Sequence record: NZ_CP072340.1
Length of the DNA: 64,000 nucleotides
From: a plasmid
Strand: one strand, 5' to 3'
The notes under the pieces were generated by a model. The model was not told the DNA's origin, did not search any database, and saw only the letters and a list, made by a program, of their open reading frames with translations. Shown in pieces: positions 41,312 through 64,000 of the stretch. Every line of letters begins with the position of its first letter. Within the stretch, counting starts at the first letter, position 1. A program made the translations under genes and the position numbers.

Positions 41312-41317
41312 AGGCTG

Positions 41318-44051: not shown

Positions 44052-44056
44052 GCACC

Positions 44057-44111
44057 CGTTCATTATTTAATGCTTGTTCAATTTTGTTGAACAAGCATTA
44101 AATAATGAACG
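44057..44111. promoter_or_regulatory. Perfect 25-bp inverted repeat (CGTTCATTATTTAATGCTTGTTCAA-TTTTG-TTGAACAAGCATTAAATAATGAACG). Terminator and/or operator for the downstream three-gene operon.
   Basis: Read directly. Four further TGTTCA/TTGAACA motifs follow at 44134 to 44189, including the palindrome GTTCAATCCTATTGAAC at 44153..44169. They are interleaved with a TATCTTTG -7 box at 44141..44148, ending just before the ATG at 44192. Confidence 0.65.
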
Positions 44112-44140
44112 AAAAAATTTGCAGTTTGATTTTTGTTCAC

Positions 44141-44148
44141 TATCTTTG
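44141..44148 (+). promoter_or_regulatory. Candidate -7 promoter element TATCTTTG for the wHTH/NTase/PP2C operon.
   Basis: An exact TAnnTTTG match about 44 bp upstream of ATG 44192, flanked by TGTTCA-type repeats. Confidence 0.35.
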
Positions 44149-44191
44149 CAGTGTTCAATCCTATTGAACGACTATAAATATTGAACAAGAT

Positions 44192-45193
44192 ATGTACGGA
44201 ATACAGATTATAGATCAGGCGGTTAGTGCGATAAGGAGACAGTGGGAGGATTCTCAAGATGTCATAATCGATGCGCTTCAGCCGGAAACGCCTTCGATGG
44301 AACAATACGTCAGAATTATGGGCATAGAGTTCCGATGCCTTGTTGAAAATGAGATAAATGGAACAAATATCCTGCGCATTGAAGAAAAATCAAAGAGCTG
44401 TATGGGGACCTACAAGGGACCTGTCATATTGGTTGCAAGATATGTACAGCCATCTGTCTATGGAACTTTGCGTAAAATGGAACTTAACTTTGCTGACACG
44501 GCAGGTAACTACAATATACAGTACACGAAGGGCAGGAAAGTGATATTCCACCTTTCTCACACAGGGGAGAAAGTCCCTGTGAATAACAACAAAAACTATC
44601 CTATATTCCAAGAAGCAGGCCTGAAGGTAATCTTTTATCTCTTGCAAGCTCCTGAGAATGTGGGCAAATCTTTTCGGGAAATCAAGGAGTATAGTGGAGT
44701 TTCGATAGGTACTGTCAAAAATGTGATTGATGAATTGGAAGTCCGTAAGTTTATTCTCGTAACTCAGAAGAAAAGAGTTCTGAAAAAACGTCGTCTTTTG
44801 CTTGATTTATGGTCGGAAAACTATCGTCAGATATTAAAGCCCAAGTTGCTGTTGAAGCAGCTGGATTTTCGCACACCGGAACAAAAAGAAAAATGGGAAG
44901 AAATAGCATTGCCAAATGGTATGTTATGGGGTGGAGAGTGTGCATCTAATTTATTGAATGGTTACCTTACTCCGGAACTTTTTGAACTCTATACAGAGAC
45001 ACCTTTCTCCAATCTGATGAAGACCGGCGCAACACGGACTACCGAAGGAGTTATTTATATATATCAGAAGTTTTGGAAAGGCGATGTAATGCCCTGCATT
45101 TTGATATATGCCGATTTAGTAAGTAGCGGAGACAGCCGTTGTATTGAAGCTGCAAATAAATTATTAAAAGATGAACTTTCAGATTTCGAGTAA
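44192..45193 (+). CDS. Hypothetical protein with a central winged-HTH domain. Candidate antitoxin/regulator partner of the downstream nucleotidyltransferase.
   Basis: 333 aa. wHTH-like segment LLQAPENVGKSFREIKEYSGVSIGTVKNVIDELEVRKFI. No enzymatic motif. The stop overlaps the next gene's start by 23 nt. Confidence 0.5.
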   Translation: MYGIQIIDQAVSAIRRQWEDSQDVIIDALQPETPSMEQYVRIMGIEFRCLVENEINGTNILRIEEKSKSCMGTYKGPVILVARYVQPSVYGTLRKMELNFADTAGNYNIQYTKGRKVIFHLSHTGEKVPVNNNKNYPIFQEAGLKVIFYLLQAPENVGKSFREIKEYSGVSIGTVKNVIDELEVRKFILVTQKKRVLKKRRLLLDLWSENYRQILKPKLLLKQLDFRTPEQKEKWEEIALPNGMLWGGECASNLLNGYLTPELFELYTETPFSNLMKTGATRTTEGVIYIYQKFWKGDVMPCILIYADLVSSGDSRCIEAANKLLKDELSDFE

Positions 45194-48320: not shown

Positions 48321-48610
48321 TAAGAATTAAGGGAAATAGGGGGAAACGCAAGGAATGTAACTATTTGAAATAATATCATTTAGCATTTTCTTACTATTTT
48401 GAGGGTAAGCAAGAACGAGCATCAAACGGCAGGAGTTCCGTTACCAAATCGTAACCCATCAGGGAAAAAGCAAAAAGGGGTTACGAATTGAATGTAAACA
48501 ACTGTGTCATAGGTTTTTATTCTTCATCTTTCATTATTCTGCATCGCTCAGGAATACTTGTTCGTATGTACCTTTGCAAGCAAAGGAAATTTAGAAAAAA
48601 CGACAGAAAA

Positions 48611-49831
48611 ATGAAAGAAAACAAACTCAAAGTATCGTTCTTCGTTCAGGCGAAACGAACCGACAAGAAAGGACTTGTGCCTGTCATTGGGCGAATCTCC
48701 GTTGGCAGAACCCATTCGGGCTTCTCCACCAAGTGTAAGACTCCGCTCGCTCTTTGGGACAGCCGTAAGCAACGGCTCATCGGTAAGAGCAGCATGGCTG
48801 TGTCCGTCAATCAGAAACTCGGCGAATGCACCGCACTTATCCACGCACGCTTTCACGAACTCAGTGAAAGGAAAGAAACTTTCACAGCCACAGACGTGAG
48901 GGATGCCTATCAAGGACAAATCCACCGCCAAACCCTGCTCTTGGAGAGTTTCGGGGAGTATCTCACACAGACAAAGGAGCGCATAGGCATTGATAGAGCT
49001 TTAAAGACATTCAAACTCCGTACCTACCAGCTATCCCTGCTTCGTGAGTATGTGCAGAAGAAGCACAAAGTAAGCGACATTCCACTCTCACAGCTGGACA
49101 AAGCATTTATCGAGGGCTTCGAGTATTATCTCACCATTGACCGAAAGCTGAAACGCAGCAGCGTATCGAGTGCCTTATCCACCTTGCAGACCATCGTCCG
49201 CATGGCGGTAAAGAAAGGTGTGCTGGACTTCTATCCTTTTTTGGGATACAGTTACGAGCGACCAAAGGGTGAACCAAGAAGCATTACGCAGGAAGAACTT
49301 GAGCGCATCATCGAGTTGAAGATTGAATGGGAGAACTATCGTATTGTCCGTGATTTGTTCGTCTTCTCCTGCTTTTCAGGGCTTGCCATCTCCGATGTCC
49401 GCAATCTGAGAGAGGAAAACATTGTCTTGGAAGAAGGCGAACTCTGCATCAAGGGCAGCCGAATGAAGACCAAAACTCCGTATCGTGTACAGGTACTTCC
49501 TCCTGCTTGGGCGATAATGGAGCGTTACAGAGGAAAGCGTGCAGGCTTTGTCTTTGACGTACCGACTACCGACATTATCCTCAATGGCATGCACCACATA
49601 CAGAGAAACATCGGCATGGAAAGTCCGCTGACCTTCCACATGGCTCGGCACACCTTTGCGTCGCTAATCACACTCTCGGCAGGTGTACCTATCGAAACGG
49701 TGAGCCGTATGCTCGGACACACCAACCTGAGAACAACACAGGTATATGCAGCGGTTTCCTCCGAAAGAATCCATCGGGACATGCAGATAGTGCAGCAGCG
49801 CATACAAGATACATTCACCTTAAAACTTTGA
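48611..49831 (+). CDS. Tyrosine-type integrase (IntDOT-like), first of the second tandem pair.
   Basis: MKENKLKVSFFVQAKRTDKKGLVPVIGRISVGR is collinear with the 37976 integrase. C-terminus HMARHTFASL..., LGHTNLRTTQVYAAV. The track start at 48488 is probably too early. Confidence 0.85.
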   Translation: MKENKLKVSFFVQAKRTDKKGLVPVIGRISVGRTHSGFSTKCKTPLALWDSRKQRLIGKSSMAVSVNQKLGECTALIHARFHELSERKETFTATDVRDAYQGQIHRQTLLLESFGEYLTQTKERIGIDRALKTFKLRTYQLSLLREYVQKKHKVSDIPLSQLDKAFIEGFEYYLTIDRKLKRSSVSSALSTLQTIVRMAVKKGVLDFYPFLGYSYERPKGEPRSITQEELERIIELKIEWENYRIVRDLFVFSCFSGLAISDVRNLREENIVLEEGELCIKGSRMKTKTPYRVQVLPPAWAIMERYRGKRAGFVFDVPTTDIILNGMHHIQRNIGMESPLTFHMARHTFASLITLSAGVPIETVSRMLGHTNLRTTQVYAAVSSERIHRDMQIVQQRIQDTFTLKL

Positions 49832-49835
49832 CCTC

Positions 49836-51104
49836 ATGACACGTAGTACATTCAAGACACTCTTTTATATCAATCGCTCCAAAGAGAAAAAGAACGGCAA
49901 ATGCCCGATTATGGGACGCATCACCATAGACGGTGAGCAGGTGCAATACAGCACGGGCAAGGAAATCGCTCCCGAACTTTGGGACAGTCGTAAGGGACGA
50001 TGCAAGGGTATAGGCGAAGAGACAAAGGAAATCAACCGCTATTTACAAAGCAAAGAGGAACAAGCCAAAGCGAAGTATCAAGAATTAGTCTGGCAACGTG
50101 GCTATATTACCGCTGAGTTGCTGAAGCGTGAACTCATGGAAGAAGACAAGCCCAAAGGTTTTCTTATGGAGGAAGCACGACTTTTCATAGAGGAAAAGCG
50201 TCCTTGCGTAGGAATAACGGTAGCCAAGCCGACCTTTGCCAACTACATCTATGCCACACAACTCATTGAGGCTTATTTGCGTGAACGCTTGGGGCTGGAG
50301 GATATTCGCTACTCATCGCTTGACTATGGTTTCATCGAGGGGCTGGACTTCTATCTTAAATCAGAGCGCAAACTCTCCCTTGCCACCATTCAGATTGTTG
50401 TCATTTTCCTGAGGAAACTCATCGGCATAGGTCAGCAGAAGAAGTATATCCGCATCGATCCGTTTGCAGACTACAAAGCAGAACTTCCACACCGCACAAG
50501 ACGTTATCTCACTACGGAGGAACTACAACGAGTATTGCAAACACCCATCATTGACAGACAATTCGAGCGAGCAAGGCAACTATTCCTTTTCTGTGCCTTC
50601 ACCGGTTTGGCTCGTGTAGATATGCAACGGCTCAAACCGAAGCATATCATCTATAATGCTGACGGCACGGCGGAAATCCGCATCAAAAGGCAGAAAACAG
50701 ACGTGGAAGCCATCATTCCACTCCTGCCCATTGCCACGCAAATCCTTTCGCTCTATATCAAGGACAAGAAAGCAGACGACTTGATATTCCCCAATCTCAC
50801 AATAAGGAAAGCATCCTTTGCGTGTGTGAACATCGGGCAGATATGCCGGATAGAGAAAGGCTTGACCTTTCACATGGCTCGCCACACATTCTCAACCACG
50901 ATTTGCCTTTCCAACGGCATCTCAATGGAAACGCTCAGCAAGATGCTCGGACACAGCAATATAGGTACGACACAAATCTACGGAAAGATAACCGACCACA
51001 AGATACAAGAGGATATGACCGCACTCACTGACAGGGAGCATTCTGTATTTGAGGGTTATTGTGAGTCGATAGCACGGCAGAACGTTCCATTGCAACAAGC
51101 ATAA
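49836..51104 (+). CDS. Tyrosine-type integrase, second of the second tandem pair.
   Basis: MTRSTFKTLFYINRSKEKKNGKCPIMGRITIDG is collinear with the 39234 integrase. C-terminus HMARHTFSTT..., LGHSNIGTTQIYGKI. Confidence 0.85.
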   Translation: MTRSTFKTLFYINRSKEKKNGKCPIMGRITIDGEQVQYSTGKEIAPELWDSRKGRCKGIGEETKEINRYLQSKEEQAKAKYQELVWQRGYITAELLKRELMEEDKPKGFLMEEARLFIEEKRPCVGITVAKPTFANYIYATQLIEAYLRERLGLEDIRYSSLDYGFIEGLDFYLKSERKLSLATIQIVVIFLRKLIGIGQQKKYIRIDPFADYKAELPHRTRRYLTTEELQRVLQTPIIDRQFERARQLFLFCAFTGLARVDMQRLKPKHIIYNADGTAEIRIKRQKTDVEAIIPLLPIATQILSLYIKDKKADDLIFPNLTIRKASFACVNIGQICRIEKGLTFHMARHTFSTTICLSNGISMETLSKMLGHSNIGTTQIYGKITDHKIQEDMTALTDREHSVFEGYCESIARQNVPLQQA

Positions 51105-51156
51105 AAAGGAAGTAATTACCAAACATTTATTATTCACGATTGAAAACCAAACGATT

Positions 51157-51624
51157 ATGAAAGAGAACAACAAACAGGAACTTTCTTACTTTCGATTGAA
51201 ATTAAGAAGTTATATGAGTGAGCATCACCCCGAAAAATTGCACGACACGGAGTTTATCACCACACGAGCAGACATGGCTCTCACTGCCTACTGCGATGCT
51301 GTGGCACAAGGTTTTTCGCACCTCGAAGCAGAGAACATAGCAAGTGAGGTGTTGTATCAAGGTTTGCACTTTTCCAAGTACGACACGCTTGTTTCTGTCT
51401 TAGAGAACGAGTTTGAGAGGGAACTGCCTGCACCACTCCCTGAGAAGCTTGCACCCATATTGTTGTCGAATGAGGCTGTTCAAGCCACATTCGACAAGTT
51501 CGGTTTGACGGACACATTTGCTTCTGACGAGCAATACGACCGTCTTTACACCGAACTCACAGGCACGATTGTGCTGCTCATCGAGAGCAATCATTTGCCA
51601 ATAATCGGTCAGACGGAGGGGTAA
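51157..51624 (+). CDS. Conserved hypothetical protein of Bacteroidales integrative elements (DUF1896-like).
   Basis: 155 aa, acidic and helical. The position directly after the integrases is the typical one for DUF1896. The family assignment is from memory of the architecture, not from motif proof. Confidence 0.45.
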   Translation: MKENNKQELSYFRLKLRSYMSEHHPEKLHDTEFITTRADMALTAYCDAVAQGFSHLEAENIASEVLYQGLHFSKYDTLVSVLENEFERELPAPLPEKLAPILLSNEAVQATFDKFGLTDTFASDEQYDRLYTELTGTIVLLIESNHLPIIGQTEG

Positions 51625-51724
51625 GTCCAAAGGCGTTGTAAGCAAAGGCACACGCAAAGTCCCTGATGCCGTTTCTTATCGTGCAAAGGTACAACGGCAG
51701 CTAATCTGCCCTGACAAGGTCAAG

Positions 51725-51770
51725 TCCTGCGGATGGAGAGAAGAATCTCCACCGCAGGATTTTTCTTTTT
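51725..51770 (+). terminator. Rho-independent terminator (stem of about 13 bp, TCCTGCGGATGGAGA / TCTCCACCGCAGGA, plus TTTTTCTTTTT).
   Basis: Read directly. A long GC-rich hairpin with a single bulge is followed by a U-run, downstream of the DUF1896-like gene. Confidence 0.7.
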
Positions 51771-51967
51771 CAAGGTGGTATTGCCATTTTCAATAGCCAT
51801 GCGGTCGTATTCATCTCTCCCAACCTTGCAGAGCAGGGCTGCCGTAGAGAGTATAGGCACGACAAGAATACGGCATACTCAGGCTCTTTGGACGCAAGGC
51901 GTAACAACCAACAACAGATAGGACTGACGATAATACGGACAATCTGTTGTTTGTACAATTTGTTGTC

Positions 51968-52080
51968 ATGACTATCTATTGTCAAAACTATATATCGTCA
52001 AAATAATCTATCGATAAAACTATCTATCGACACTTCGACATCTCGATTTGTCGAACTATCGAATTATCGATAAAACAACA
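51968..52080. repeat. Iteron-like array of ATCGA(T)-core short repeats (TATCGATAAAAC twice, TATCGACAC, ATCTCGATT, TATCGAATTATCGATAAAAC).
   Basis: Read directly. There are at least six ATCGA cores in about 110 bp. TATCGATAAAAC is an exact 12-mer at 52003 and 52062. It lies in the intergenic region upstream of the Xis-like genes of the nested element. Confidence 0.55.
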
Positions 52081-52303
52081 AAATAATAAAAGGAACGAGC
52101 CGGCACCTCATCTCATTACCGCAATAACACAGATGGATCTCCTTTGGTCTTTTCTCTTGTTTTCTCTCTATTTCCCTGCTTATCCTCATTTCTTGCAGCG
52201 GTGCTTCCGAGGGTTTACTTTTGCACTTGATAAGTACGGCAATGGACTGCATAACAGTTTGTTTGCCGAGTAACAATAAAGTAATCAAAACAAAATTAAG
52301 GCA

Positions 52304-52573
52304 ATGAAACTCATTATCATCGACCGCAAAGCGTGGGAGCGACACCACTCCGAATTTGCAGACTTTATCCACAGTATCGAACAACTCATCGGCAATCCGC
52401 CCGAAACGGACGAATGGCTTGACAACGAAGCCGTGTGCAAGCGTTTGGGCATCAGCAAACGTACCCTGCAATCATACAGAGATACGGGGAAAATCCCTTT
52501 CTCAATGATTGGACACAAGTGCTATTACAAGGAGAGCGACATCACGGAGTTACTGAACGCAAACAATGAATGA
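52304..52573 (+). CDS. Xis-like HTH_17 DNA-binding protein.
   Basis: LDNEAVCKRLGISKRTLQSYRDTGKIPFSMIGHKCYYKESDI is an HTH_17 excisionase-type motif. 89 aa. Confidence 0.65.
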   Translation: MKLIIIDRKAWERHHSEFADFIHSIEQLIGNPPETDEWLDNEAVCKRLGISKRTLQSYRDTGKIPFSMIGHKCYYKESDITELLNANNE

Positions 52574-52576
52574 ACT

Positions 52577-52891
52577 ATGACAGAGAACGAAATCATTACA
52601 CAGCAAGCCCCTCAGATGCAGATGTTTGCACAACTGATGGAGGGCATCTTAAAGAAACTGGAGCGTTATTGCGCTACCGCCCGTCCGATGCTGGGCGGAG
52701 AGGTTTACCTCACTGGCGAGGAGGTTTGCAGCCAATTACGGCTCAGCACACGCACGCTCCAAGAGTACAGAAACTTAGGAACACTTCCTTTCTACAAAAT
52801 CGGAGGGAAGATACTTTACAAACAGAGCGACATACAAACAATGCTTGAAAGGCATTATAACGCAATACCCAAGAAATTATGGCAAGAATAG
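52577..52891 (+). CDS. Xis-like HTH_17 DNA-binding protein (second copy).
   Basis: LTGEEVCSQLRLSTRTLQEYRNLGTLPFYKIGGKILYKQSDI is a paralogous HTH_17 motif. 104 aa. Confidence 0.65.
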   Translation: MTENEIITQQAPQMQMFAQLMEGILKKLERYCATARPMLGGEVYLTGEEVCSQLRLSTRTLQEYRNLGTLPFYKIGGKILYKQSDIQTMLERHYNAIPKKLWQE

Positions 52892-53385
52892 ATGAACAAA
52901 GGAAACAGCGTCTGGAACAAGCCCTTCGAGATATGGGCAATTATGGCGTTAAGCTCCGCAAGCCAGAAGAGTTGCCCGATTTTGATCAGCCCATAGATTA
53001 TGAAGAGGAAAAGAAAAGATTTGAGCCTGTTAAAGTTGAGGAACAAAATGACAAGGAGAGTCACAAGGACTATTCTCAACCGTCCAATCAAGAAACAGAG
53101 TTGTCACCAAAGGAAAGGGCTACTTCTACTGAAGAGAATCATCAACGAATGGGAAAAACAAGGGACAGGAAGCAATTATCCGAGTTTCAGGGGAAATATC
53201 TCCAGCCCTTTCGCAACAGCCACCGCAAAGCCGTGTATGTATCAGAGGAAACTCAACGAAAGTTGGACTTCGTGGTGAGGAAAATCGGTGAGCAGGGAGC
53301 AAGCGTTTCAGGATATGTGGAGCAGGTGCTTCGAGAACATCTCGACCAATACAAAGATGATGTGGAAAGATGGCGGAAACTCTGA
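52879..53385 (+). CDS. DUF3408-like conjugative-element protein with a C-terminal ribbon-helix-helix-like segment.
   Basis: 168 aa with a charged low-complexity middle region. C-terminus AVYVSEETQRKLDFVVRKIGEQGASVSGYVEQVLREHL is RHH-like. Confidence 0.45.
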   Translation: MARIDEQRKQRLEQALRDMGNYGVKLRKPEELPDFDQPIDYEEEKKRFEPVKVEEQNDKESHKDYSQPSNQETELSPKERATSTEENHQRMGKTRDRKQLSEFQGKYLQPFRNSHRKAVYVSEETQRKLDFVVRKIGEQGASVSGYVEQVLREHLDQYKDDVERWRKL

Positions 53386-53487
53386 AGTACTGCATTCCTC
53401 GAATGCAAGCCTACGCCGAGTTACTGTATTCAGTGAATGCAGTAACACGGCATGGGCTTATAATCCCATTTTCTACATCAGCAAGGT

Positions 53488-54021
53488 GTGTCTTTGTCCG
53501 ACAAACTACCGTTTGTCCCACAAAAACCCTTGCCCCGAAGGGGATTAAATCACTCCAAAGTCGTGATTAGACAACAAACAAAACAAGTTAAGATTATGCC
53601 TAAATTAGAAATAGCCAACAACAACCGCTACGGTCATCGTAGGATAGAAGAAGTGCCACGCTGGGACAGATGGGACACCCGTATGCCAGATGTGAAAGAC
53701 CAACTGCGAGCCATCGACCTGTACAACAAGTCGGGGGCAGTGAGCAAGTCCGATTTCGTTCGTGCCCGTATCCTTGGAGAGAGATTCAAGGTGATAATGG
53801 TGGATAAGTCCGCAGTTGAGTATTACCGCAAGCTCTCTGAACTCACAGCCCAAGTACATAAGATTGGCATAAACTATAATCAAGTCGTCCGCTTGATGCA
53901 CCTTTATACGGCAGAGAAAAGTGTAAAAGCTTTGTTGCAGGAACTTATCCAACTAACAAAAGAACTCACTACCTTCCAAGAGAAAGCAGTGAGTTTAACC
54001 ATTGACTATCGGGAGAGATAA
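53488..54021 (+). CDS. MobC-family relaxosome accessory (mobilization) protein.
   Basis: The conserved MobC-family motif KIGINYNQVVRLMH corresponds to the G.N.NQ.AR.LN consensus. The probable start is the Met at 53596 (MPKLEIANN...). No relaxase gene follows. Confidence 0.55.
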   Translation: MSLSDKLPFVPQKPLPRRGLNHSKVVIRQQTKQVKIMPKLEIANNNRYGHRRIEEVPRWDRWDTRMPDVKDQLRAIDLYNKSGAVSKSDFVRARILGERFKVIMVDKSAVEYYRKLSELTAQVHKIGINYNQVVRLMHLYTAEKSVKALLQELIQLTKELTTFQEKAVSLTIDYRER

Positions 54022-54037
54022 GGAATGTGCGATGGAA

Positions 54038-54523
54038 TTATATTCCCCCAAGCATTTTTTGCAGCAGATTGCCCGATGTTCGTGTTATTTGGAAGTCTAT
54101 GGTTTGGTTTTCTACTGTTTTTATGTCGGCTGGCTTGAAACGACAAAGGGCTTCCTGACGCTCCAATGTGTCACGGACGGAAGAAAGGTCCTGTATCTGC
54201 CCTGCAAACGTTCCATAGGGAGATTGCAGATAAATCATTTGTCTGTTTACATTGTCGGGGCGTTTATTCTCGAACTTTAATAAGATGGTTATATCTGTGC
54301 TGTCCGCTGGTGTTGCGGTTGTTGCTCCGTGTACGGTAGCCGTTCCCGAATACACTTGTTTATAAGGCAGGAAATAGGCTACGGCTAACAGACAAAGCAA
54401 AACAGCTCCTATGGCAGTAATACCATAACGAACGAGAGATGAGGGTATCTGCCCCACGATGCTGCGTACTTTCTCGCTGCGGAGCTCAAAACTCCGTTCC
54501 TGTTTCTTTTCCTGGTTTTCCAT
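54038..54523 (-). CDS. HlyD-family membrane-fusion/adaptor protein, N-terminal 161-aa fragment (apparently truncated).
   Basis: A cytoplasmic charged N-terminus, one TM (YGITAIGAVLLCLLAVAYFL), then the start of the periplasmic domain. Full-length partners of C39 ABC exporters are about 400 aa or longer. Its start overlaps the ABC gene's stop. Confidence 0.45.
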   Translation of the reverse strand: MENQEKKQERSFELRSEKVRSIVGQIPSSLVRYGITAIGAVLLCLLAVAYFLPYKQVYSGTATVHGATTATPADSTDITILLKFENKRPDNVNRQMIYLQSPYGTFAGQIQDLSSVRDTLERQEALCRFKPADIKTVENQTIDFQITRTSGNLLQKMLGGI

Positions 54524-54524
54524 A

Positions 54525-56738
54525 TCAGTTACCCAATTCTAATTGATTCTTCACTAAGGCAAAATATTTACCACGTTTAGCAGTCAGATCCTCGTGTGTA
54601 CCTACCTCTACAATTTTACCTTCATCCAAAACTACAATTTGGTCGGCATCGCGAACAGTGGAAAGGCGGTGTGCCACTACTACAACTGTTTTTCCCTTGT
54701 AGAACTCCGAGAGGTTTTCTGTAATGGCTCGTTCATTGTTGGCATCGAGGGCATTGGTCGCTTCATCCAGAAAGACAAACATTGGATTCTTATAGACTAC
54801 CCTTGCTATCAAAATGCGTTGTCGTTGTCCCTGACTGATGCCCTGTCCGTCCTGTCCTATCATCGTGTTGTAAGCCAAAGGCAGGGCTTCGATGTAGTCA
54901 GCGATGTTTGCCACACGGGCAGCATGGCGGATACGTTCGATGTCGGGTTCATCATCCGATATGGCAATATTCCTCGCAATGGTATCGGAGAAGAGATACC
55001 CCTCCTGCATTACCGCACCGCATTGGCTTCGCCACCAGCCGAGATTATATTCATTCAGATTGGCACTGCCGACTTGAACGCTTCCTTTCAGAGGTTCATA
55101 GAACCCCAACAAGAGTTTAACGAGTGTGGTCTTTCCGCTTCCACTCGCCCCCACGATTGCGGTTACTTTGCCGTTAGGTATGGAGAGATTGATGTCTGAG
55201 AGAATATCTTTTGGGCTGTAGATGTCGTATTTGAAAGAGAGGTCTTTTATCTTGAGGGAATGTCCCTCAAGTGTTTCGTCAATGTAGGCATTCCGTGTTC
55301 TTTTCGCATTCTCCTCGTTAGTCTCTGTATGAATTTCGTTCATACGGTCAAGGCTGATGCTCACGTCTTGCCAAGAATAGATAAACTGAATGAGCTGTTC
55401 CACGGGGCTGTTGAGCTGTCCAATGATGTACTGCACTGCCAGCATCATACCAAGCGTCATATTGCCTTGTATGACAGAAGTTGCAGCAAAAACGGTAATC
55501 AAGATATTTTTTATCTCGTTGATGGTGATGCTTCCTGCCTGTTGTATTTGCTGAAGATTAAGACTTTGCAGATTGACCTTGAAAAGGTCGGCTTGCACGT
55601 CCTCCCATTCCCAACGCTTGCGCTGCTCACATCCCTGCAACTTGATTTCCTGCATACCACCTATGAGTTGGTAGGTAACGTTGCGGTTTCGCCCTGCCTG
55701 CTCGAAATATTTGTAGTCCAACTGCCTGCGCTTTTTGAGAAAAAGGATAATCCATCCGGCATAAAGCGATGTCCCCGAGAGGAATACAAGGAAGATGCCA
55801 AGATTATAGACTGCAAGGACGACACCGAAGACAAGGAAGGTGAAGAACGAGAATAGCAGGCTCAGACTGCTTGAGGTGAGGAACTGCTCCACACGTCGGT
55901 GGTCTTCAATACGTTGCAAGAGGTCGCCCATCAGTTTGGTGTCGAAGAACTTCATCGGTAGTTTCATCAATTTGATGAAGAAATCCGAGATGAGCGAGAT
56001 ATTGATACGTGTGGAGATGTGCAGGAGTATTTTGGAGCGGATAAAGTCGATGGCGGTACGGCTGAAAAGTAGCATCATTTCTGCCAAGAGCACTAACCAT
56101 ACAAAGCCTATATCCTTTCCTCCTATACCTGTATCAACGATGGCTTGAGTGAGGAAGGGGAAAATGAGTTGCAGGAGCGAGCCGAGCAACAGACCGAGAA
56201 TGAGTTGCGTAAAGAATCTCTTGTACTTTTTGAGATAGTTCCAAAGGAACTTCGCGCGGCTTTGAGTCGGTGCTGTTTCTGTATCGTTTTGAGCATAGAA
56301 CTGTTCTGTCGGTTCAAGAAGAAGGGCGACACCTTTCTCCTCACCGTTGGTCTTAGTACTTACCCAATGCTCGCAGAACTCCTCTTGGGTATAGGAAACA
56401 AGTCCTTTGCCAGGGTCGGCAACATATACGGTATATTTTCCTTTTTTGTGCTTTTTTATTTTATAGACAACAACAAAATGATTTTGATTCCAATGAACAA
56501 TGCAGGGCAAAGGAACTTCAAATGCAAGTGTATCAAAACTTAATCGACCTCCAACAGTCTTGAAACCGATAGTTTCTGCAGCCTTACTGATACCAAGCAA
56601 AGAAACTCCCTCTCGATTTAATGAACAAACTGTTCTAATTGAATCAATATTAAAATCGCGACCATAATGCTTAACTATCATTGCTAAGCAAGAAGGTCCA
56701 CAATCTTTTGCGTCACGTTGTCTAACTAAGGTGTACAT
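54525..56738 (-). CDS. Peptidase C39-domain ABC transporter (double-glycine-leader peptide cleavage/export, SunT/LagD-type).
   Basis: N-terminal C39 peptidase with active-site Cys (QRDAKDCGPSCLAMIVKHYG) and His region (HFVVVYKI). Six-TM ABC exporter domain. Walker A GASGSGKTTL, signature ISQGQRQRILIARV, Walker B MFVFLDEATNALD. Confidence 0.9.
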   Translation of the reverse strand: MYTLVRQRDAKDCGPSCLAMIVKHYGRDFNIDSIRTVCSLNREGVSLLGISKAAETIGFKTVGGRLSFDTLAFEVPLPCIVHWNQNHFVVVYKIKKHKKGKYTVYVADPGKGLVSYTQEEFCEHWVSTKTNGEEKGVALLLEPTEQFYAQNDTETAPTQSRAKFLWNYLKKYKRFFTQLILGLLLGSLLQLIFPFLTQAIVDTGIGGKDIGFVWLVLLAEMMLLFSRTAIDFIRSKILLHISTRINISLISDFFIKLMKLPMKFFDTKLMGDLLQRIEDHRRVEQFLTSSSLSLLFSFFTFLVFGVVLAVYNLGIFLVFLSGTSLYAGWIILFLKKRRQLDYKYFEQAGRNRNVTYQLIGGMQEIKLQGCEQRKRWEWEDVQADLFKVNLQSLNLQQIQQAGSITINEIKNILITVFAATSVIQGNMTLGMMLAVQYIIGQLNSPVEQLIQFIYSWQDVSISLDRMNEIHTETNEENAKRTRNAYIDETLEGHSLKIKDLSFKYDIYSPKDILSDINLSIPNGKVTAIVGASGSGKTTLVKLLLGFYEPLKGSVQVGSANLNEYNLGWWRSQCGAVMQEGYLFSDTIARNIAISDDEPDIERIRHAARVANIADYIEALPLAYNTMIGQDGQGISQGQRQRILIARVVYKNPMFVFLDEATNALDANNERAITENLSEFYKGKTVVVVAHRLSTVRDADQIVVLDEGKIVEVGTHEDLTAKRGKYFALVKNQLELGN

Positions 56739-56804
56739 TTATGATATATAAAACTATACTAAAAATACTATACTAAAGTAAATATTAAATTTGCAAAAAT
56801 ATTA

Positions 56805-59141
56805 TCACTGCAAATTCAATCGTTTCTGATTGCTTTCATTGGTGTTCAATCTTCTAAATGTATCCTTAAATCCATTGAATGTATATTTAATGGTCAGTAA
56901 AAGAAAGCGACTATCGAAATCAGGAGTTGTTTGTACTTTGATATTATCTATGAATACATTTGTTTTTGATATAGATTTATGTAATAAATCGTTACCTCTC
57001 AAGATAATTTGTAAACGATTATCTTTGAAGAAATTTTGCCGTATCCAAAAAGATAAACCATACTTAGGTGATTCCAATACTCCCAAGAAACCATTTTTTG
57101 AAGAGTAAGATAAATCTATAGACGCCATCATTTGCTTAGTAATGTCAAATTGATTGACCAAGGTAAATGCAATATTTGGATTTCTAGGTGCATAAGTATC
57201 TAAGTATTTAATTTTTGTTGGAATATAACGAAATGAAGCATTATAAGCAAATCTATATATACCGAATTTATCTGAATAACTTGCATTAAACAACCATGTA
57301 TTGTAATCTACATTGACGGGAGAATTCAATAGAGCTCCATTTAATTCAGAATTTTCGGTGAACTTCCACAAAACAGCATTAGCGTCATGTATGTATCTTC
57401 CCTGTAAGACAAATTTATTCTTCCATACCATAGATAAGGAATAAATGTATCTATCATTAGATTTAAGAGATGAATTACCTTTTTCATATAAATAAGGATT
57501 TATATAATGCAAAAGAGGGGAAATATCCCTAAACATTGGTCGTGAATTCTGAGTAATAATACTTCCAATGAATAGCAAATCGGGATTTATCTGCCATTGG
57601 GCTGTTATACGAGGAAAGAGTTTAAAGTATGTATCAGTAATACTATTTGTTTTATTTTGCTCATATTCAGAATGAAAAATGCTTCCTCTAACCCCTGCGG
57701 TGATAAAGAGTTTATTCCATTTTTGATTTATAGTTGCAAATAAACTGAGTTCATCATCTTGAAGATTACTCGTTATATTATAGAATGGAGTCGTAGTATT
57801 CTCAAAAATGTAATTTGAATAGCCTTTGTTCAGAATAGAATTTCCTTGAAAGCCCATATTTAGAGAGAAACCCTTTTTCGAGTTGTAGTCGTACTCTATC
57901 TTTGTATTAAATGCGTTATAGTCATTTTTACCATTTATCCAAGAACGGTTTTTACTGTTTGATACTAAATCTATCTCTGATTTTGTTTTAGCGTAGAAAT
58001 AACCGCCAGAAACAGATAGTTGTTGCTTATCTGTCATTGTATAATTTACCAACAAATCGGCATTGGCAGAAATATTACGACTTCTTTCATCTTGATGAGT
58101 GTTGGAATATAGTGTATTCAGACCATATTCATAGTTATACTCATCTCCTTGGGTATTCGCTTTCTTATTGGAGATATTTATATCACCCTGAAATGTTATA
58201 TTAAATTTTTGATTGGGTCTGTAACTGAAACTTTCGACAATATGGTGAGCAGGCTTGGAAAGAATTTCATTATTGTAAGAGATGGAAGACCGTTCCGTTT
58301 TCCCTTTAGGGCTTAATACATCGTATTGATTGGTACCTGTGTTATCTTCATTGAGGTATGAAAAATTATAAGACAATAAATTATCCCATTTCTTTTTTGA
58401 TAAAGAAATTCTCAATACATCCTCTTCTGTATACCGCCGTCCGAACAAAGAATTATGTTCCACCTGAGCAGAAAAGTAATCTGTTAATTGTTGGTTTGTT
58501 GTAATAGAAATAATACAACCATATTGAGCCGAATATTTAGCTGGTGGATAGTAATTAACATTTACCGTTTTTATTTGTTCAGGACGGAGCGTACCGATTC
58601 TATCGTATGATTTTTGTTCTACTCCATTCAATATATACAAAGGTGTGCCTCCTGATATAGGTACAACTCTTCCACCGGTCGCCAACATTCCTGGAAGAAA
58701 AGCAAGAACATCTGCAACTTCGGGTAATTTTTTTAACTCTGATTTTGAGACGTCTATTTCAAATGTTCCTTCTGAAACTTTATAGACTGCTCTTTTTCCT
58801 TTAACTATAACCTCTTGCAACGTGTTGGAATTCGGTTCTAACTGGATAACAGTTGGAAGAGGAATAGAGACTCGTGCTTGTTTATATCCCATAAATCTGA
58901 CAGCAATAAATTTACCATCAGTTCCTTCTTTGCTTATATTGAACACCCCTTTTGAATCAGTTGTTGTACTTTTTAAAATTTCTCCTTCTTCTGTAATTAA
59001 TAGTACGGTGGCATAGGGTAAAGGTTCTTGTACCTCATCAACTACGGTAGCTGATAACATCAATGTATCTTGAGGTACTATTGCTGCTTGAGATTGAAAA
59101 CTGAAAACAGAAATTAAAATTAAAATTAAAACACGAAACAT
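56805..59141 (-). CDS. Outer-membrane beta-barrel protein with an N-terminal CarbopepD_reg-like domain (TonB-dependent-receptor-like) in the peptide-export operon.
   Basis: Signal peptide MFRVLILILISVFSFQSQA. CarbopepD_reg-like fold (LSATVVDEVQEPLPYATVLLITEEGEILKSTTTDSKGVFNI). Plug-like region (ILNGVEQ...). A long beta-rich barrel ends in an aromatic residue. Its architecture parallels the 35003..37558 protein. Confidence 0.7.
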   Translation of the reverse strand: MFRVLILILISVFSFQSQAAIVPQDTLMLSATVVDEVQEPLPYATVLLITEEGEILKSTTTDSKGVFNISKEGTDGKFIAVRFMGYKQARVSIPLPTVIQLEPNSNTLQEVIVKGKRAVYKVSEGTFEIDVSKSELKKLPEVADVLAFLPGMLATGGRVVPISGGTPLYILNGVEQKSYDRIGTLRPEQIKTVNVNYYPPAKYSAQYGCIISITTNQQLTDYFSAQVEHNSLFGRRYTEEDVLRISLSKKKWDNLLSYNFSYLNEDNTGTNQYDVLSPKGKTERSSISYNNEILSKPAHHIVESFSYRPNQKFNITFQGDINISNKKANTQGDEYNYEYGLNTLYSNTHQDERSRNISANADLLVNYTMTDKQQLSVSGGYFYAKTKSEIDLVSNSKNRSWINGKNDYNAFNTKIEYDYNSKKGFSLNMGFQGNSILNKGYSNYIFENTTTPFYNITSNLQDDELSLFATINQKWNKLFITAGVRGSIFHSEYEQNKTNSITDTYFKLFPRITAQWQINPDLLFIGSIITQNSRPMFRDISPLLHYINPYLYEKGNSSLKSNDRYIYSLSMVWKNKFVLQGRYIHDANAVLWKFTENSELNGALLNSPVNVDYNTWLFNASYSDKFGIYRFAYNASFRYIPTKIKYLDTYAPRNPNIAFTLVNQFDITKQMMASIDLSYSSKNGFLGVLESPKYGLSFWIRQNFFKDNRLQIILRGNDLLHKSISKTNVFIDNIKVQTTPDFDSRFLLLTIKYTFNGFKDTFRRLNTNESNQKRLNLQ

Positions 59142-59231
59142 TACAACAAGAAAGTTATAGAGATATAAAGTTGTAAATAAAAATAAAATGTCTGACTATG
59201 AACGAAAGAGCATAGTCAGACACAGAAACTC

Positions 59232-59408
59232 TTAAGGCTTTGTTGTTACTCTGTCAATGATGACAGTCCCATCATCCTTAATCGTTGTTGTAATGGTGGT
59301 TGTTGAACCATCTGCATTGATAATGGTTTTAGTTGCAGTTACATCACCGCCACCATTGATAAAACCCATTTCGTCTTTTGAAAAGACTTCTAAAGCTAAT
59401 GCTTTCAT
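59232..59408 (-). CDS. Double-glycine-leader peptide precursor (58 aa). Leader MKALALEVFSKDEMGFINGG, then a Thr/Ile-rich 38-aa core.
   Basis: Hand-translated from the minus strand: MKALALEVFSKDEMGFINGGGDVTATKTIINADGSTTTITTTIKDDGTVIIDRVTTKP. It fits the GG-leader consensus (E/D-L..-..I.GG). It is the first gene of the operon with the C39 ABC exporter. It is under 60 aa, so the ORF track missed it. Confidence 0.65.
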   Translation of the reverse strand: MKALALEVFSKDEMGFINGGGDVTATKTIINADGSTTTITTTIKDDGTVIIDRVTTKP

Positions 59409-59726
59409 AACTAAATAGAATAAAGTTTATACTTGGCTCGGTATTCTCCGAACCGTTAATTAAAATTTGGATGTCAGAGTTTCGCACGATGTGCATATTA
59501 ACAGACATTCAATTGCAATATTACGAAAAGAAAACGAGAAAAACAAATTTTTCGCCACGTTTTTTGCGATTTCCATTATTTTGTGTCGTTTTTCATAATG
59601 AAATGACTATCTTTGCAACTATAAATTAAGTGTTCATTGAAGCATTGCAAAATAAAGAAAGGGAAAGAAACTCGCTCGTTTCCATCTCGTAACCCATTTA
59701 CCCTTTATTCATTCTTATTTTATTGA

Positions 59727-62700
59727 TTATCTGAAAGATACAATATTCTTGAATCTTTTACGGGCGTAATCCGTTGCGATGAGCATTTTTGCCCTTCCCT
59801 CGCTCTCACTCAGAGGTGCTCGTCCCAAGATTGTGGCATCTCCACTCTTGGCAAACTCCATCAACTTGCCGATAAAAACCTCCTGCTCGGGCGTGGGCGG
59901 TATGTTATGCAGTATCTCGTTCTTCTCGGGGCGGTCGATACCGATGTCCTTGGCTGTGCGAAAGTCGCAAATCTCCGCATAGAACGAGGCAAGCTCCGGC
60001 ACTTTGATAAAGGTGCGGAACCGCTCTTTCTGAATGATGTCGTTTGTGATGGAGAACTCATAGTCAGTTGATTTCTTGGCAAAGACTGCTGCCCAAGCAT
60101 CAAAACTGTTGATACCCTGTTTTTCTAATGCCTGCGGACGGAGATACTTGAACAGAAGATACAACTCCGTCAGGCTATTGGAAATGGTCGTTCCCGAAAG
60201 GAAAGTGGCTCCCAAATCCTTGCCGGACCTCTCCTGTATGGTACGAATAGCAAAGAGCATGTTTAAGGCACGCTGTGAACCATCAGGATTACCCAAGCCC
60301 GACACACGGTCGTGGCGGGTATTGAACATCAGGTTCTTGAATTGATGGCTTTCATCTACAAAGAGGTGGTCGATACCCATCATCTTGAAGTCTACAGCAT
60401 CGTCCTTTCTTTCGGCGATGCTGTCCTGTATGTTCTGCAACTTGGCTTCAAGCGTCTGCTTGCGTTTTTCCAGTCCTTTGAGCATGCCACGGGAGATGTC
60501 TCTTCCTTGTTGCCGCAACACTTCGAGATTTTCTTCCACGGAGTCCAGTTCCTTTTGCATAATCGCCTCCTGTATCTCGAAGGCCTGCGGTATCATGCCG
60601 AACTGTTCATGCGTAAGTATTATGCAGTCCCAGTCGTTGTTCTTGATGTCGTTGAAAATGCGTTGTCTGTTCTGCTTGTTGAAATCATTCTTGCCCGGAT
60701 ATAAGATCCTCGCATTGGGATAAGCCTTTCTAAAGGTGTCGGCAATGTCAAAGACGTTTGCCTTCAGTCCGATAATCATTGGCTTGTTTGCCAGTCCCAA
60801 TCGCTTCATCTCGTAGGCTGCCGTACACATGATGAGTGTCTTGCCCGCCCCCACCTCGTGATCACAGATGCCTCCTCCATTGGTCTTCAGCATCCATACG
60901 GCATCCTTCTGGCTCTTGTAGAGGTCGGCAATGCCCAACCGTTTGAGGTCAAGGTCGGGAAAAGTCTGATGTGTGCCGTCAAAGTTCGGTCGCACAAAAC
61001 AGTTGAAAAGGCGGTTGTACCTGTCGGAGAGTTGTTGTTTGAAGGTATCGGGTGTGCGTCCGAGCCAATCGACAAAGCCCTGTCTGATTTCCTCAATCTT
61101 GGCATTCGCCATCTGGATGGCATGTCCGTCCCTTACTTTGATGGTCTTGGTCTCTCCCGTAACCTTGTCCGTCACTTCCTTGCTCTTGTTGATGTCGGGA
61201 ATGGTATTGTGCAGGGCATGCTTTAAGAGATTGATACCGTCATAGCGGCGGAACTCACCCTGTACGGCATACTTGTGCCAGATATTGGCATTCTTATGGT
61301 CACATACAATGCTGTACTCGTCCATGTTGGAATGGTAGGATACACCAATATCCGTCCCGAAAAACTCCGAGGCAAACCTGCCATAGACTTTGGCAGGTAT
61401 CCAGCGTTCACCGAGATTAAAGTCAAGGTCTGCAAATGGAATGGGTGTTGGCGTGGCTGCACGCAAAGCGGCAAGGCTCTGTTTGGCTTCCTCATGGTCT
61501 GGATGGTCCAAGAGCCACGACTCGATACGCTCCGCCTTTTCTATTACATTGCCCGAAATGAACTTGTCCGCCACTTCGTAGGCATTCTCTTCGGGATTGT
61601 AATAGATGCGACCTTCCAAGGAAGAAATGATGTCGCTTTCCTCCATATCAGGTAAAAGCGAACTCATGTAGTCAAGTTCCACCGCGCCGTACTTGTTGAG
61701 CGATGCACCCAGTGCCTCCATCGGGTCTGCGGCAACGGTCAGTTCCGTGGTGGAAAATGCCGTAGGATGGTCAAAGATGTCCGCCTTGATGTACCTGCCG
61801 TTCTCGGAGCGTTCCAAGAACAGCATTTCCACGCCTGTAGCATCCATCTTGATGATGTCGGTGTTAGCCTTTTGGTTAAAGTAGCCCCAGCGTGCAACAT
61901 AATCATCATACAGGTGGTTGAGTCTGCTGCGGTCCTCCTTGTCTTCTGCATGGTTCTCTGCCTCGTAGTCATAGAGACGATGATAGCACTCCCGTATCTC
62001 GATATAGCTTTTTAGTCGGGAAAGCTGCGCATACGGCAAGTCCATCGGATTAAAGGTCGGATGTCGCTTTAAGTCAGAAAGAAACCCCACCTGCCCTTTC
62101 TGCACGACAATGGAGCCGTCTCTTAAGTGGGAGTCCGGCGATGAGAGAAAGGGACGGGGTGAGGAATCAAACTCCTTTTTCACCTCCGCTATCGGTTGTG
62201 GTTTTCGCTCTTCGGCTTCATTCATGAAGTCAAAGAGAGATGGCTCACGATATGAGGGGGAGATGATCTTCTTATTGCCCTTTCCTCTGGTTTTACGCCC
62301 TGGAGTGACTGTAGGTTGTTTTTCGCTCTCCTTTCCTGCTTTGTTTTCCGGTTGCTTTTGAGCTGTCTGCACCTGCGATTTTGGAGCTTCTTTAATCTCG
62401 CTGTTCACGCGCGTTACTTCCTGCGTCCAGAGATTGTATTCCTCCGGAGCGAACAGTGAAGGCTGCTCCGTTTCCTGTCGCTCGTCCATGCCGTTCATCA
62501 CCGGATGATGGTCATCGTCGAAATAGACCATCTGTCCGTTCATCTCCCGTGGAGACTCCACATCGGTACGGATTTCCTTCACATCCTGCTCATACTGACG
62601 GTGAAGAGTCAATGTAGGCACGCCTTCAGGAGCAGGCTCATAGGAAATGTGGTCGATAGCCTGCACGATTTGCCTATTAGCCTTTTCCCTGACTTGCTCC

Positions 62701-64000
62701 CCAGCCTTTTCTACTTGAACTTCCTCCTTGTCCTCTTCCGTGGAGAGCTTCTCCTCCATTGGCTGAGCCAGAACTGTCGGCTCGGCTTTTTTCTTGATTT
62801 CCTCAATAATCGGCTCCTTGGTGTATTGTCCTTGGACAATCTCCTCCAGTTCTGCAATCTCGTGCAGTTTCTTGGGGCTAAAATATAAGTCTCGCTCAAT
62901 GCCTAACCCATGTATCTTGACTTCCTCCATTTCGTCAAGCGACATATTGCCCAGTTCCCAACCATAGCCCATCGTGACAGCACCGAAACCGATGCGGGTC
63001 TTCGGGTCGTACTCCAAGAGGTAGGCCGTATATGCCCCCATCGGGAAGAAATAGCGTGCGTAGGCTATTTTATCGCCAATGAGTTCCTTCTCCGTGCTGT
63101 ATAGTTTGGGCAATTGTTTCCTGATGCTGTCGGGCATGAGATTATAGGCGTTATCCGCCTCCTTGTCCGTTTTTGGCTCCTCGTTGGGCAAATCAACCGT
63201 TATACCCAACTTCTGCAGTTGTTTCTCCACTTCTTTCTGTCGTTCCTCTTCCGTCATCGGTATGCCAGTTTCATAGAGCTTTCGGTCAAAGCGTTGCTCA
63301 AATTCCAAGGAGAGTTGTGTTCTGATACTCTCCGCCATATCATCAATGCTGCCATCGAAGCGATACTCCCATGCAGGTTTGCCGTATGGGTCCCTGCCCA
63401 TCGTGCGTTCCGTGGCAATGGTGCGGTGGGCTATGTCCTTCCATTCACCATCAAAGAGCGAGTTGTGCTTGAATACGACAGAGGAACCTTCGGCTATGGG
63501 AACAGACACAGAAGCTACGAACTGCTGTTCGATGCCCTCGCCGATGGTCTTGCCCGACTGCTTTTGCAGGACGATGAGGTCGCTGCCGACTTCCGTTCCT
63601 GCATTCTCAGAGAACATACCCGACGGCAGGCGGAGAGCGGAGATAAGCCGGCTGTTCTGCATCAGATAACGGCGGATGGCTTCGTTCTTCGGGCTGTCCA
63701 GCACACCCTGCGAGGTGATGAATGCCATCAGCCCACCTTCTTTAATGCAGTCCAGCCCCTTTACAAAGAAGTAATTGTGGATGGCTCGTGTGGATTCGCG
63801 TTTGAGAATGTCCTTGCCCTTGCTGTACTCCCGGTCATAGACCATGAAATCACCAAAGGGAATGTTACTTGTTATAAGGTCGTACTTGTCCTTGTCCTCC
63901 AACTCTCCGATGGCTTCAAAGGGGGCTTGGCGGACTATGATGTTGCCTTGTCCATAAGGATGAATGGCTTGTGAGATACGGGCAGTGAGCAGGTCTTTCT
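59727..64000 (-). CDS. N-terminal part (partial) of the CTn N6-adenine DNA methyltransferase / SNF2-family helicase (N-terminal helicase motifs).
   Basis: Methyltransferase motif IV-like LITSNIPFG is near the window edge, so the ORF surely continues past 64000. SNF2/DEAH motifs [14 protein letters not shown] and [11 protein letters not shown]. It ends ...[16 protein letters not shown] at 59727. The C-terminal half is at 46728..48320. Confidence 0.75.

Follow-up and report, generated by a model that had tools for sequence, protein, structure and literature searches.

Here we describe a four-gene cassette on the minus strand of a plasmid, between positions 54038 and 59408 of a 64,000-nucleotide (nt) stretch of sequence record NZ_CP072340.1 (hereafter, the window). 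It encodes a peptide with a double-glycine leader, an outer-membrane protein (OMP), a peptidase-containing ABC transporter (PCAT) and a small, probable relative of the membrane-fusion proteins, referred to below as the adaptor. Comparison with related loci indicates that the peptide and OMP genes are swapped together, as a unit of low guanine-plus-cytosine (GC) content, on a PCAT/adaptor chassis that is conserved, and we tentatively propose that the OMP serves as a gate for the mature peptide. A preliminary description, made from the sequence alone, had already placed a peptide export operon here. In the direction of transcription, the genes are:

59232..59408, minus strand: precursor peptide gene; leader codons 59349-59408 (20 amino acids (aa), ending in GG), core codons 59235-59348 (38 aa), stop codon 59232-59234
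56805..59141, minus strand: 778-aa OMP; signal peptide, CarboxypepD_reg domain at about 28-100, TonB-box-like motif LQEVIVKGK at 108-116, small plug at about 121-215, barrel of about 22 strands
54525..56738, minus strand: 737-aa PCAT; Peptidase_C39 (6e-33), ABC_membrane (9e-30) and ABC_tran (2e-28) domains
54038..54523, minus strand: 161-aa probable minimal membrane-fusion-protein relative; N-terminal motif ELRSEKVR..GQIP, one transmembrane (TM) helix at 28-51, a single small beta-barrel domain at 53-152

A conserved double-glycine peptide gene

The open reading frame (ORF) at 59232..59408, which is present in public gene calls, begins with ATG and comprises 58 codons of product, with the leader MKALALEVFSKDEMGFINGG followed by the core GDVTATKTIINADGSTTTITTTIKDDGTVIIDRVTTKP. 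Residues G-1, G-2, I-4, M-7, E-8, F-12 and L-15 of the leader form the canonical double-glycine pattern by which PCAT substrates are recognized (GG, or GA/GS, at -2/-1; hydrophobic residues at -4, -7, -12 and -15; an acidic residue near -8), and the GG column is unchanged in nine homologues. A word-seeded search of 5.8 billion proteins returned 43 relatives of the peptide, whose source names include Prevotella nigrescens, a metagenome-assembled genome of Prevotella sp. and Bacteroides fluxus. In a public assembly collection, 3218 indexed blocks contain the exact peptide, and all 10 of the places listed for it hold the same four-gene string (peptide, 778-aa OMP, 737-aa PCAT and a protein of 161-165 aa).

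Codon comparison with three divergent homologues gave ratios of nonsynonymous to synonymous change per site (pN/pS) of 0.24-0.29. For the two most divergent of them, from the loci that we number L012 and L016, pS was 0.67-0.76, with synonymous sites near saturation, and pN about 0.2. Against the B. fluxus-type gene, the core has 23 changes over 27.5 synonymous sites and 11 over 80.5 nonsynonymous sites. Homologues as distant as 41-48% identity retain the reading frame, the GG site and a pair of DG(S/T) turn motifs. These comparisons indicate that the ORF is a conserved gene under purifying selection, not a chance ORF. The preliminary description had regarded it as a genuine GG-leader gene, to be given up if it were not conserved beside C39 ABC genes; the selection, the cleavage site and the genomic context all speak for it, and the peptide gene lies beside a C39 ABC exporter in every locus examined.

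As first described, the 38-aa core is rich in Thr and Ile and free of Cys (12 Thr, 6 Ile and 0 Cys). Its alternation of Thr with Ile/Val, together with the two DG turns, is predicted to give a three-stranded amphipathic sheet; in databases the core resembles, weakly, the beta-hairpins of immunoglobulin-like domains and VCBS repeats. No curated bacteriocin or modified-peptide family was reached above its cut-off, in agreement with the earlier view that the core fits no named bacteriocin class. The sole Pfam match was Mersacidin (E = 0.066), VCBS_repeat reached E = 0.006 in two of nine peptide homologues, under its curated cut-off, and the score against TIGR03893 (lichenicidin A2 type) was 20.9 bits, below the cut-off of 32.95. 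Membership in a family like TIGR04149, the GG-Bacteroidales targets of radical SAM (rSAM) enzymes, had been named as a point to check; the best E-value, 0.02, in four of nine homologues, falls short of the curated cut-off, and this assignment is not upheld.

Three other identities were considered and rejected. [quoted passage not shown] Among metagenome variants (P0035-P0042), several are frameshifted after about 30-35 residues, near a run of Thr codons (ACAACAACCACC), and could be sequencing errors or slippage-prone pseudogenes.

Exchange of the peptide/OMP pair on a common chassis

The GC content of the peptide gene (0.37) and of the OMP gene (0.32) is set apart from that of the PCAT and adaptor genes (0.45-0.46). 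Identities to the window proteins in four related loci are as follows:

L005: peptide 100%, OMP 100%, PCAT 96%, adaptor 86%
L012: peptide 60%, OMP 64%, PCAT 89%, adaptor 52%
L020: peptide 48%, OMP 54%, PCAT 85%, adaptor 66%
L017: peptide 70%, OMP 43%, PCAT 59%, adaptor 41%

A second, decayed cassette in L008 retains an adaptor that is 79% identical to that of the window and PCAT fragments that are about 80% identical at the DNA level, with an OMP that is only 21% identical. Variation of this kind was also found in a metagenome survey, in which 80 loci were found through the adaptor and 46 had enough upstream DNA; what was counted was OMP-PCAT adjacency, since a pattern search for GG peptides ahead of these varied OMPs gave results too noisy for a dependable peptide count. 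An OMP-family gene lies at most 400 nt upstream of the PCAT gene in 30 of these 46 loci, or in about 36 when mis-called PCAT starts are allowed for, and these OMPs are anywhere from 98% to about 20% identical to that of the window, the PCATs 80-99%. In every examined locus with enough upstream sequence, the orthologous OMP gene is preceded by a peptide homologue.

Several islands hold more than one such pair. The gene order in L012 is a Cys-rich peptide with an AG site, OMP774, the homologue of the window peptide, OMP784, PCAT, adaptor and OMP797. In L001 (15480-19656) and L066 (8470-12775), the adaptor is followed by a module consisting of an OMP, a 64-aa GG peptide with CGxG repeats and an rSAM enzyme. 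Taken together, the loci suggest about one OMP per peptide type, with one leader-reading PCAT in common, and the earlier proposal of a barrel dedicated to the peptide gains from the co-variation of the two genes, from their swapping as a unit and from this near one-to-one ratio.

The Cys-rich peptide of L012 (2952-3131; 59 aa, AG cleavage motif) is unrelated to the window peptide and ends 1 nt before its own 774-aa OMP gene. The B. fluxus-type chromosomal locus (L016-L019, 5517-13021) adjoins genes for a divergent histidine kinase and a response regulator, has an adaptor of 68 aa and encodes an additional, pheromone-like GG peptide of 57 aa whose core is acidic and rich in Trp (EGHWEMINGQWAWVETYDLGDEDYENT). 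In its make-up, this locus is reminiscent of three-component autoinduction loci.

Fold of the outer-membrane protein

The Pfam matches of the OMP are CarbopepD_reg_2 (3.7e-10) and OMP_b-brl_3 (PF14905; 1.3e-34). The Plug (PF07715) and TonB_dep_Rec (PF00593) models gave no match to it at E <= 0.1, and a sequence search against PDB chains gave none that was significant; distant homologues recovered by a family-profile search carry Plug, TonB_dep_Rec and PF14905. An AlphaFold2 model built with 79 sequences (mean pLDDT, the per-residue confidence score, 83.1; pTM, the score for the overall fold, 0.75) shows a signal helix and, at 28-100, a CarboxypepD_reg sandwich. LQEVIVKGK falls in a low-confidence linker (107-115) that leads to a small plug-like domain (121-215), and about 22 strands make up the barrel. 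When this model was compared with the PDB using Foldseek, the top 50 matches were all TonB-dependent transporters (TBDTs), with E-values of about 1e-18 to 1e-20, among them ChuA, PfeA, PirA, OprC, FyuA, FepA, FhuA and Cir. Across orthologues of 51-82% identity, the plug is the most conserved region, and L108, E110, V113, K114 and G115 are invariant.

On the strength of the model, the OMP is a divergent TBDT fold with an N-terminal extension and not a TolC-type channel, so that the TonB-dependent-receptor-like barrel of the preliminary description finds support in the Pfam matches, the predicted structure and the structural search alike. A scan of contigs from species-representative genomes with OMP orthologues yielded only two loci, one of them from Prevotella sp. 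B2-R-102, because the element that carries the cassette is rarely present in such genomes.

Transporter and adaptor

The PCAT retains all the expected motifs (DCG at 12-14, NHFVVV at 86, Walker A at 530, the signature motif at 634 and Walker B at 655), and NCBIfam models of bacteriocin-export ABC proteins match it strongly, under their equivalog cut-offs. From what is known of the family, it is predicted to cleave the leader and export the peptide; both its domains and its intact catalytic and ATPase motifs agree with the C39-peptidase exporter recognized earlier.

The adaptor gene starts 1 nt past the PCAT stop codon. Its 161-aa product matched no Pfam or NCBIfam family, the HlyD models included, and no PDB chain significantly by sequence. 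An exhaustive search for relatives returned 467 cluster representatives, mostly of 155-170 aa; relatives also came from P. brunnea, P. histicola and Prevotella sp. C561. Longer relatives (205-315 aa) share the ELRSEKVR..GQIP motif and the TM helix with the 161-aa protein, and when 61 relatives were scanned, longer ones included, HlyD_3 was found in 9 and HlyD_D23 in 6. When the 161-aa protein is aligned to longer relatives bearing HlyD_3, about 70 aa are passed over. The adaptor of the B. fluxus-type locus (L017) has shrunk to a 68-aa stub, with only the N-terminus and the TM helix.

We read the 161-aa protein as a remote, minimal membrane-fusion-protein relative that would have lost the lipoyl and alpha-hairpin parts. 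The HlyD-like adaptor of the preliminary description would stand as a probable distant kinship, traced through longer HlyD_3-bearing homologues; it does not stand as a HlyD protein, since no HlyD model matches. Because most relatives have 155-170 aa, the short length is a family trait, not a truncation, and a truncated hlyD pseudogene was rejected as an explanation, the length being conserved over hundreds of clusters at 50% identity.

Candidate promoter and transcript structure

The following elements surround the cassette genes on the minus strand:

59409..59768, minus strand: upstream region that travels with the cassette; right end of the cassette and of the mobile element at about 59765-59770
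59516..59547, minus strand: candidate Bacteroidetes-type promoter; TTTG at 59547-59544, 20-nt spacer, TAATATTG at 59523-59516
59435..59454, minus strand: short hairpin or palindrome GGTTCGG-AGAATA-CCGAGCC in the predicted 5' leader; folding free energy (dG) -11.7, z -3.9
59174..59223, minus strand: strong stem-loop (59223-59188) with a U-rich run, between the peptide and OMP genes; dG -22.5 kcal/mol, z -7.05
53963..53995, minus strand: terminator-like hairpin; 15-pair stem and T-run, 43 nt past the last cassette gene

In alignment, the position of the candidate promoter is conserved upstream of the homologous peptide genes of L005, L012 and L020. The consensus element of Bacteroides promoters is TAnnTTTG; the window version has one mismatch, L020 carries a perfect copy (TATCTTTG) at this position, and no exact TAnnTTTG occurs within 390 nt upstream of the window peptide gene. 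Sigma-70-type promoters were no commoner in a generic scan than in shuffled sequence, and an Rfam scan of 53900-59900 gave no match at E <= 1.

Pairing in the 5'-leader hairpin is kept despite changes on both arms in L012 (AGTTTGG..CCAAACT) and L020 (GATTCGG..CCGAATC). Such covariation is only suggestive of a conserved structure, drawn as it is from about four distinct sequences. Past the peptide gene, strong hairpins of unrelated sequence occupy the equivalent position in L012 (-25.9), L020 (-30.4) and L017 (-30). The stem-loop of the window was overlooked by a generic terminator scan, its loop being longer than 8 nt, and was found by folding the region directly; it is probably an attenuator, a terminator or a transcript-stabilizing hairpin. 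A hairpin after a structural-peptide gene is the usual layout where more structural peptide than machinery is made, and the co-transcription assumed in the preliminary description would have to be understood as read-through past it into the machinery genes.

About 150 nt of the cassette's upstream region (window 59591-59742) recur as an 81% identical copy upstream of another OMP gene in L005 (3388-3542), and may be a shared regulatory segment. An insertion sequence (IS) element encoding a 326-aa transposase lies between the peptide and OMP genes in L014 (5979-6959), L036 (about 2160-3290) and L049 (about 2600-3729), that is, in the isolate Prevotella sp. B2-R-102 (L014) and in two metagenome contigs. 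The insertion cuts the machinery genes off from the peptide promoter.

A proposed two-step secretion route and its alternatives

We propose, tentatively and giving it slightly less than an even chance, a two-step secretion in which the PCAT would cleave the precursor and export the core to the periplasm, from where a peptide-specific, TBDT-like gate would carry it out. The conserved promoter would drive the 58-aa precursor gene, and the hairpin past the peptide stop codon would probably keep peptide transcripts above read-through into the three machinery genes. As in other members of its family, the PCAT would read the double-glycine leader, cut after G20 and move the unmodified 38-aa core across the inner membrane. 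The 161-aa protein probably partners the PCAT and would be too small to reach the outer membrane, so that the peptide would be released into the periplasm; both the missing lipoyl and hairpin domains and the 68-aa stub of L017 argue against docking to TolC and for such a release. The OMP, specific for the mature core, would then pass the peptide across the outer membrane with TonB energy, much as Oar may do for PopC. In the least secure step, the peptide would most likely act as an antagonistic, bacteriocin-like effector, or possibly as a signal.

Outward transport is favoured because the lost bridging domains leave the outer-membrane step without another carrier, and because the same OMP family accompanies chemically unrelated RiPPs in the locus descriptions of PMC8939145 and PMC10352776. 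The proposed route would also explain why there is one gate per peptide, since the shared leader has been removed by then and only the core would be recognizable. Several points weigh against it. The best structural matches of the OMP are all importers, and in most known clusters for secreted small molecules the TBDT is the re-uptake receptor for the product. To our knowledge, the peptide has no reported antibacterial activity, and no evident immunity gene was found in the four-gene cassette. Having one partner gene per peptide is also a signature of immunity genes, and the position of the B. fluxus-type locus beside a histidine kinase and a response regulator suits signal sensing. Bacteroidetocins, moreover, reach their targets from loci without a dedicated OMP, their release perhaps occurring by lysis (PMC6671954), which suggests that a dedicated exporter may not be strictly needed.

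In the main alternative, the OMP would be the cognate uptake receptor and the peptide would leave the cell otherwise (in vesicles, by lysis or through an unlinked channel), to be re-imported into the periplasm of module-carrying cells as a quorum or kin signal sensed at the inner membrane, or as a ligand carrier. We consider this unlikely, though far from negligible. It draws on the TBDT fold, the conserved TonB-box-like motif and the plug, every close structural match being an importer, and on the example of siderophore clusters and of the methanobactin transporter MbnT, in which the TBDT imports the product. Peptide-specific pairing would be natural for a receptor, and OMPs with no peptide gene directly ahead (the third OMP of L012 and the decayed OMP of L008) could be eavesdropping receptors; the B. 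fluxus-type locus adds the divergent histidine kinase, the response regulator and a second, pheromone-like GG peptide. The version on the mobile element, however, lacks any sensor or regulator on which an imported peptide could act, and for a pheromone, a beta-sheet peptide of 38 aa is long. A metallophore role is itself unlikely given a core without Cys, His or obvious ligand-binding residues. The occurrence of the same OMP family beside rSAM, graspetide and lanthipeptide-like RiPPs fits transport outwards better, and re-uptake does not explain how the peptide gets out through the outer membrane.

We regard it as improbable that the OMP is an immunity or self-protection factor, peptide and OMP being toxin and immunity partners served by one export chassis, in the manner of polymorphic toxin loci. 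A single partner gene immediately downstream of each peptide gene, the exchange of the pair as a unit on a transporter backbone and the lack of any other immunity candidate in the cassette would all suit such a pair, and OMP genes without an adjacent peptide gene would look like orphan immunity genes. The TonB-box-like motif and the plug nevertheless point to energized transport, not to passive protection, and we are aware of no case in which a 778-aa TBDT confers immunity to a bacteriocin. Known Bacteroidales peptide toxins do act at the outer membrane, the bacteroidetocins targeting BamA according to the title of Matano 2021 (mBio), as given in the reference list of PMC12219008; an extra barrel, however, would not remove the sensitive chromosomal target. 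It is very improbable that peptide and OMP genes are unrelated neighbours, or the small ORF silent, with the cassette being simply a PCAT and an adjacent nutrient TBDT. The terminator-like hairpin between the two genes, and the IS element found there in L014, L036 and L049, could be taken in this sense, yet the position of the hairpin is itself conserved, purifying selection acts on the ORF, whose GG site is kept across homologues of 41-95% identity, and the two genes co-diverge, share a low GC content and stand in the same order, with the peptide homologue upstream of the orthologous OMP gene, in every examined locus with enough sequence.

With less assurance than for this cassette, we hold it possible that PF14905 TBDT-like barrels in general are cargo-specific, TonB-powered export gates which, combined with a minimal adaptor and a PCAT, would give Bacteroidota a general route of secretion in two steps for leader-cleaved peptides, each peptide type having its own gate; if true, this would be a secretion pathway without an earlier experimental description. 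The passage of GG-leader peptides through the outer membrane of Bacteroidota is an explicitly stated gap in PMC6671954. With four genes and no modifying enzymes, and very common in human-associated Prevotella and Bacteroides metagenomes, the cassette offers a clean system for asking whether a TBDT runs in reverse as a peptide exporter or is a receptor. Whichever the direction, the answer matters for interbacterial competition or signalling among oral and gut bacteria, and for the cargo of small mobile elements. The pairing also provides a mining rule for new peptides, namely, to inspect the sequence upstream of PF14905 barrels near PCAT genes.

The mobile element and its surroundings

The cassette forms the right-hand end of an 11.4-kb integrative element at about 48321-59768, inserted into a host gene:

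48321..54021, plus strand: rest of the element; tyrosine integrases (48488-49831 and 49836-51104), DUF1896, two HTH_17, DUF3408 and a MobC_2-like protein (Pfam)
59727..63902, minus strand: 5' part of the split host N6-methylase/SNF2-helicase gene; N6_Mtase, Eco57I and SNF2-rel_dom
46728-48320, minus strand: 3' part of the same gene; Helicase_C, with its own ATG at 48320

The same N6-methylase/SNF2-helicase gene is split by the element in the window, L002 and L006. TDYARK is encoded in differing codons at both junctions (about 48302-48320 and 59757-59774), which amounts to an imperfect insertion-site repeat. The string of element genes also follows the cassette in L002-L004 and L006-L010, and the element occurs in at least six unrelated flanking contexts with a sharp edge at about 59765-59770; similarity to eight loci with unrelated flanks ends at 59759-59770. 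The integrases, the MobC_2-like protein and the varied flanks are those of an integrative mobilizable element, which bears out the earlier placement of the locus as cargo on a nested mobile element. A Pfam scan of seven element ORFs found no relaxase domain, only the MobC_2-like accessory protein, and mobilization would therefore need a relaxase in trans. Because L001 and L005 carry the four-gene cassette alone, with neither integrase nor Mob genes, the cassette is a separable module. A search of a plasmid collection returned no meaningful match.

Two other regions of the window were noted. A separate cluster at 31054-37558 encodes a DUF5687 membrane protein, an ABC ATPase, two Porph_ging-family proteins and an 865-aa CarbopepD_reg protein. 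The segment at 37976-45193, with a second tandem pair of tyrosine integrases (37976-39205 and 39234-40511), AAA_25 (41695-43755) and an AbiEi_2 antitoxin-like protein (44192-45193), suggests another integrated element beside the split helicase gene.

Comparison with known systems

In methanobactin and siderophore clusters, a dedicated TBDT (MbnT, FpvA) imports the metal-loaded product. The cassette shares with them the joint encoding of a product, here one predicted to be secreted, and a product-specific TBDT, and differs in having a peptide without evident metal-binding residues and predicted export by a PCAT. The bacteroidetocins (Coyne et al. 2019, PMC6671954) are likewise PCAT-dependent GG-leader peptides of Bacteroidales, whose small genes are often unannotated. 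Genes for a 5-TM protein and a thiol oxidoreductase are found in their loci, an OMP gene is not, and their cores contain two or more Cys (PMC6671954); the window cassette has an OMP in place of the 5-TM protein and the thiol oxidoreductase, and its core is free of Cys, so that it is not of the bacteroidetocin (class IIf) type.

At the inner membrane, the cassette would be expected to work like class II microcin and bacteriocin export with a PCAT, as in colicin V (CvaAB-TolC), with which it shares an adjacent C39 ABC exporter, a probable membrane-fusion-protein relative whose gene directly follows that of the ABC protein, and carriage on mobile DNA. It departs from these systems in its adaptor of about 160 aa without lipoyl and alpha-hairpin parts, in an operon-encoded OMP of TBDT fold instead of TolC, in having no evident immunity gene and in a core outside the microcin and bacteriocin families. 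Type I secretion is defined by a membrane-fusion protein (MFP) whose lipoyl and alpha-helical hairpin domains reach a TolC-family outer-membrane factor. The locus has a probable minimal MFP relative without these spanning domains and an operon OMP of TBDT fold; the canonical ABC-MFP-TolC design is therefore not supported. The preliminary description had suggested a Bacteroidetes-specific tripartite exporter; in the type I sense this finds no support, given an adaptor that lacks the bridging parts and of which the B. fluxus-type locus keeps no more than a 68-aa stub.

A precedent for the OMP is Oar, a TBDT with a CarboxypepD_reg extension and a TonB box that is required for secretion of PopC in Myxococcus xanthus (PMC6434023). 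Both have the N-terminal CarboxypepD_reg extension, a TonB box (TonB-box-like in the window OMP) and a plug, and for both an outward movement of periplasmic cargo has been proposed; the likeness is one of fold and domain order within the TBDT superfamily. Oar differs in exporting a large protease and in being encoded with a Ton system, not beside its cargo or a PCAT.

Genomic parallels are found in Bacteroidetes RiPP clusters. PF14905 OMPs are listed among graspetide-locus neighbours as predicted exporters in the relevant passages of Makarova 2022 (PMC8939145), and PF14905 or unspecified OMP genes are noted in RiPP clusters there and in corresponding passages of Fernandez-Cantos 2023 (PMC10352776), so a dedicated OMP in such loci is not a new observation. 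The clusters described in those passages differ in encoding modifying enzymes (ATP-grasp, rSAM, YcaO, LanM), of which the cassette has none, and the same passages of PMC8939145 and PMC10352776 do not describe one-OMP-per-peptide modularity, a minimal adaptor family or mobile carriage. A full-text literature search returned no paper with the peptide sequence and no functional study of such an OMP. As far as we could find, then, the cassette, widely spread on a small mobile element, adds to these known systems an unmodified, Thr-rich peptide family, a peptide/OMP unit that is swapped on a chassis and a family of minimal adaptors.

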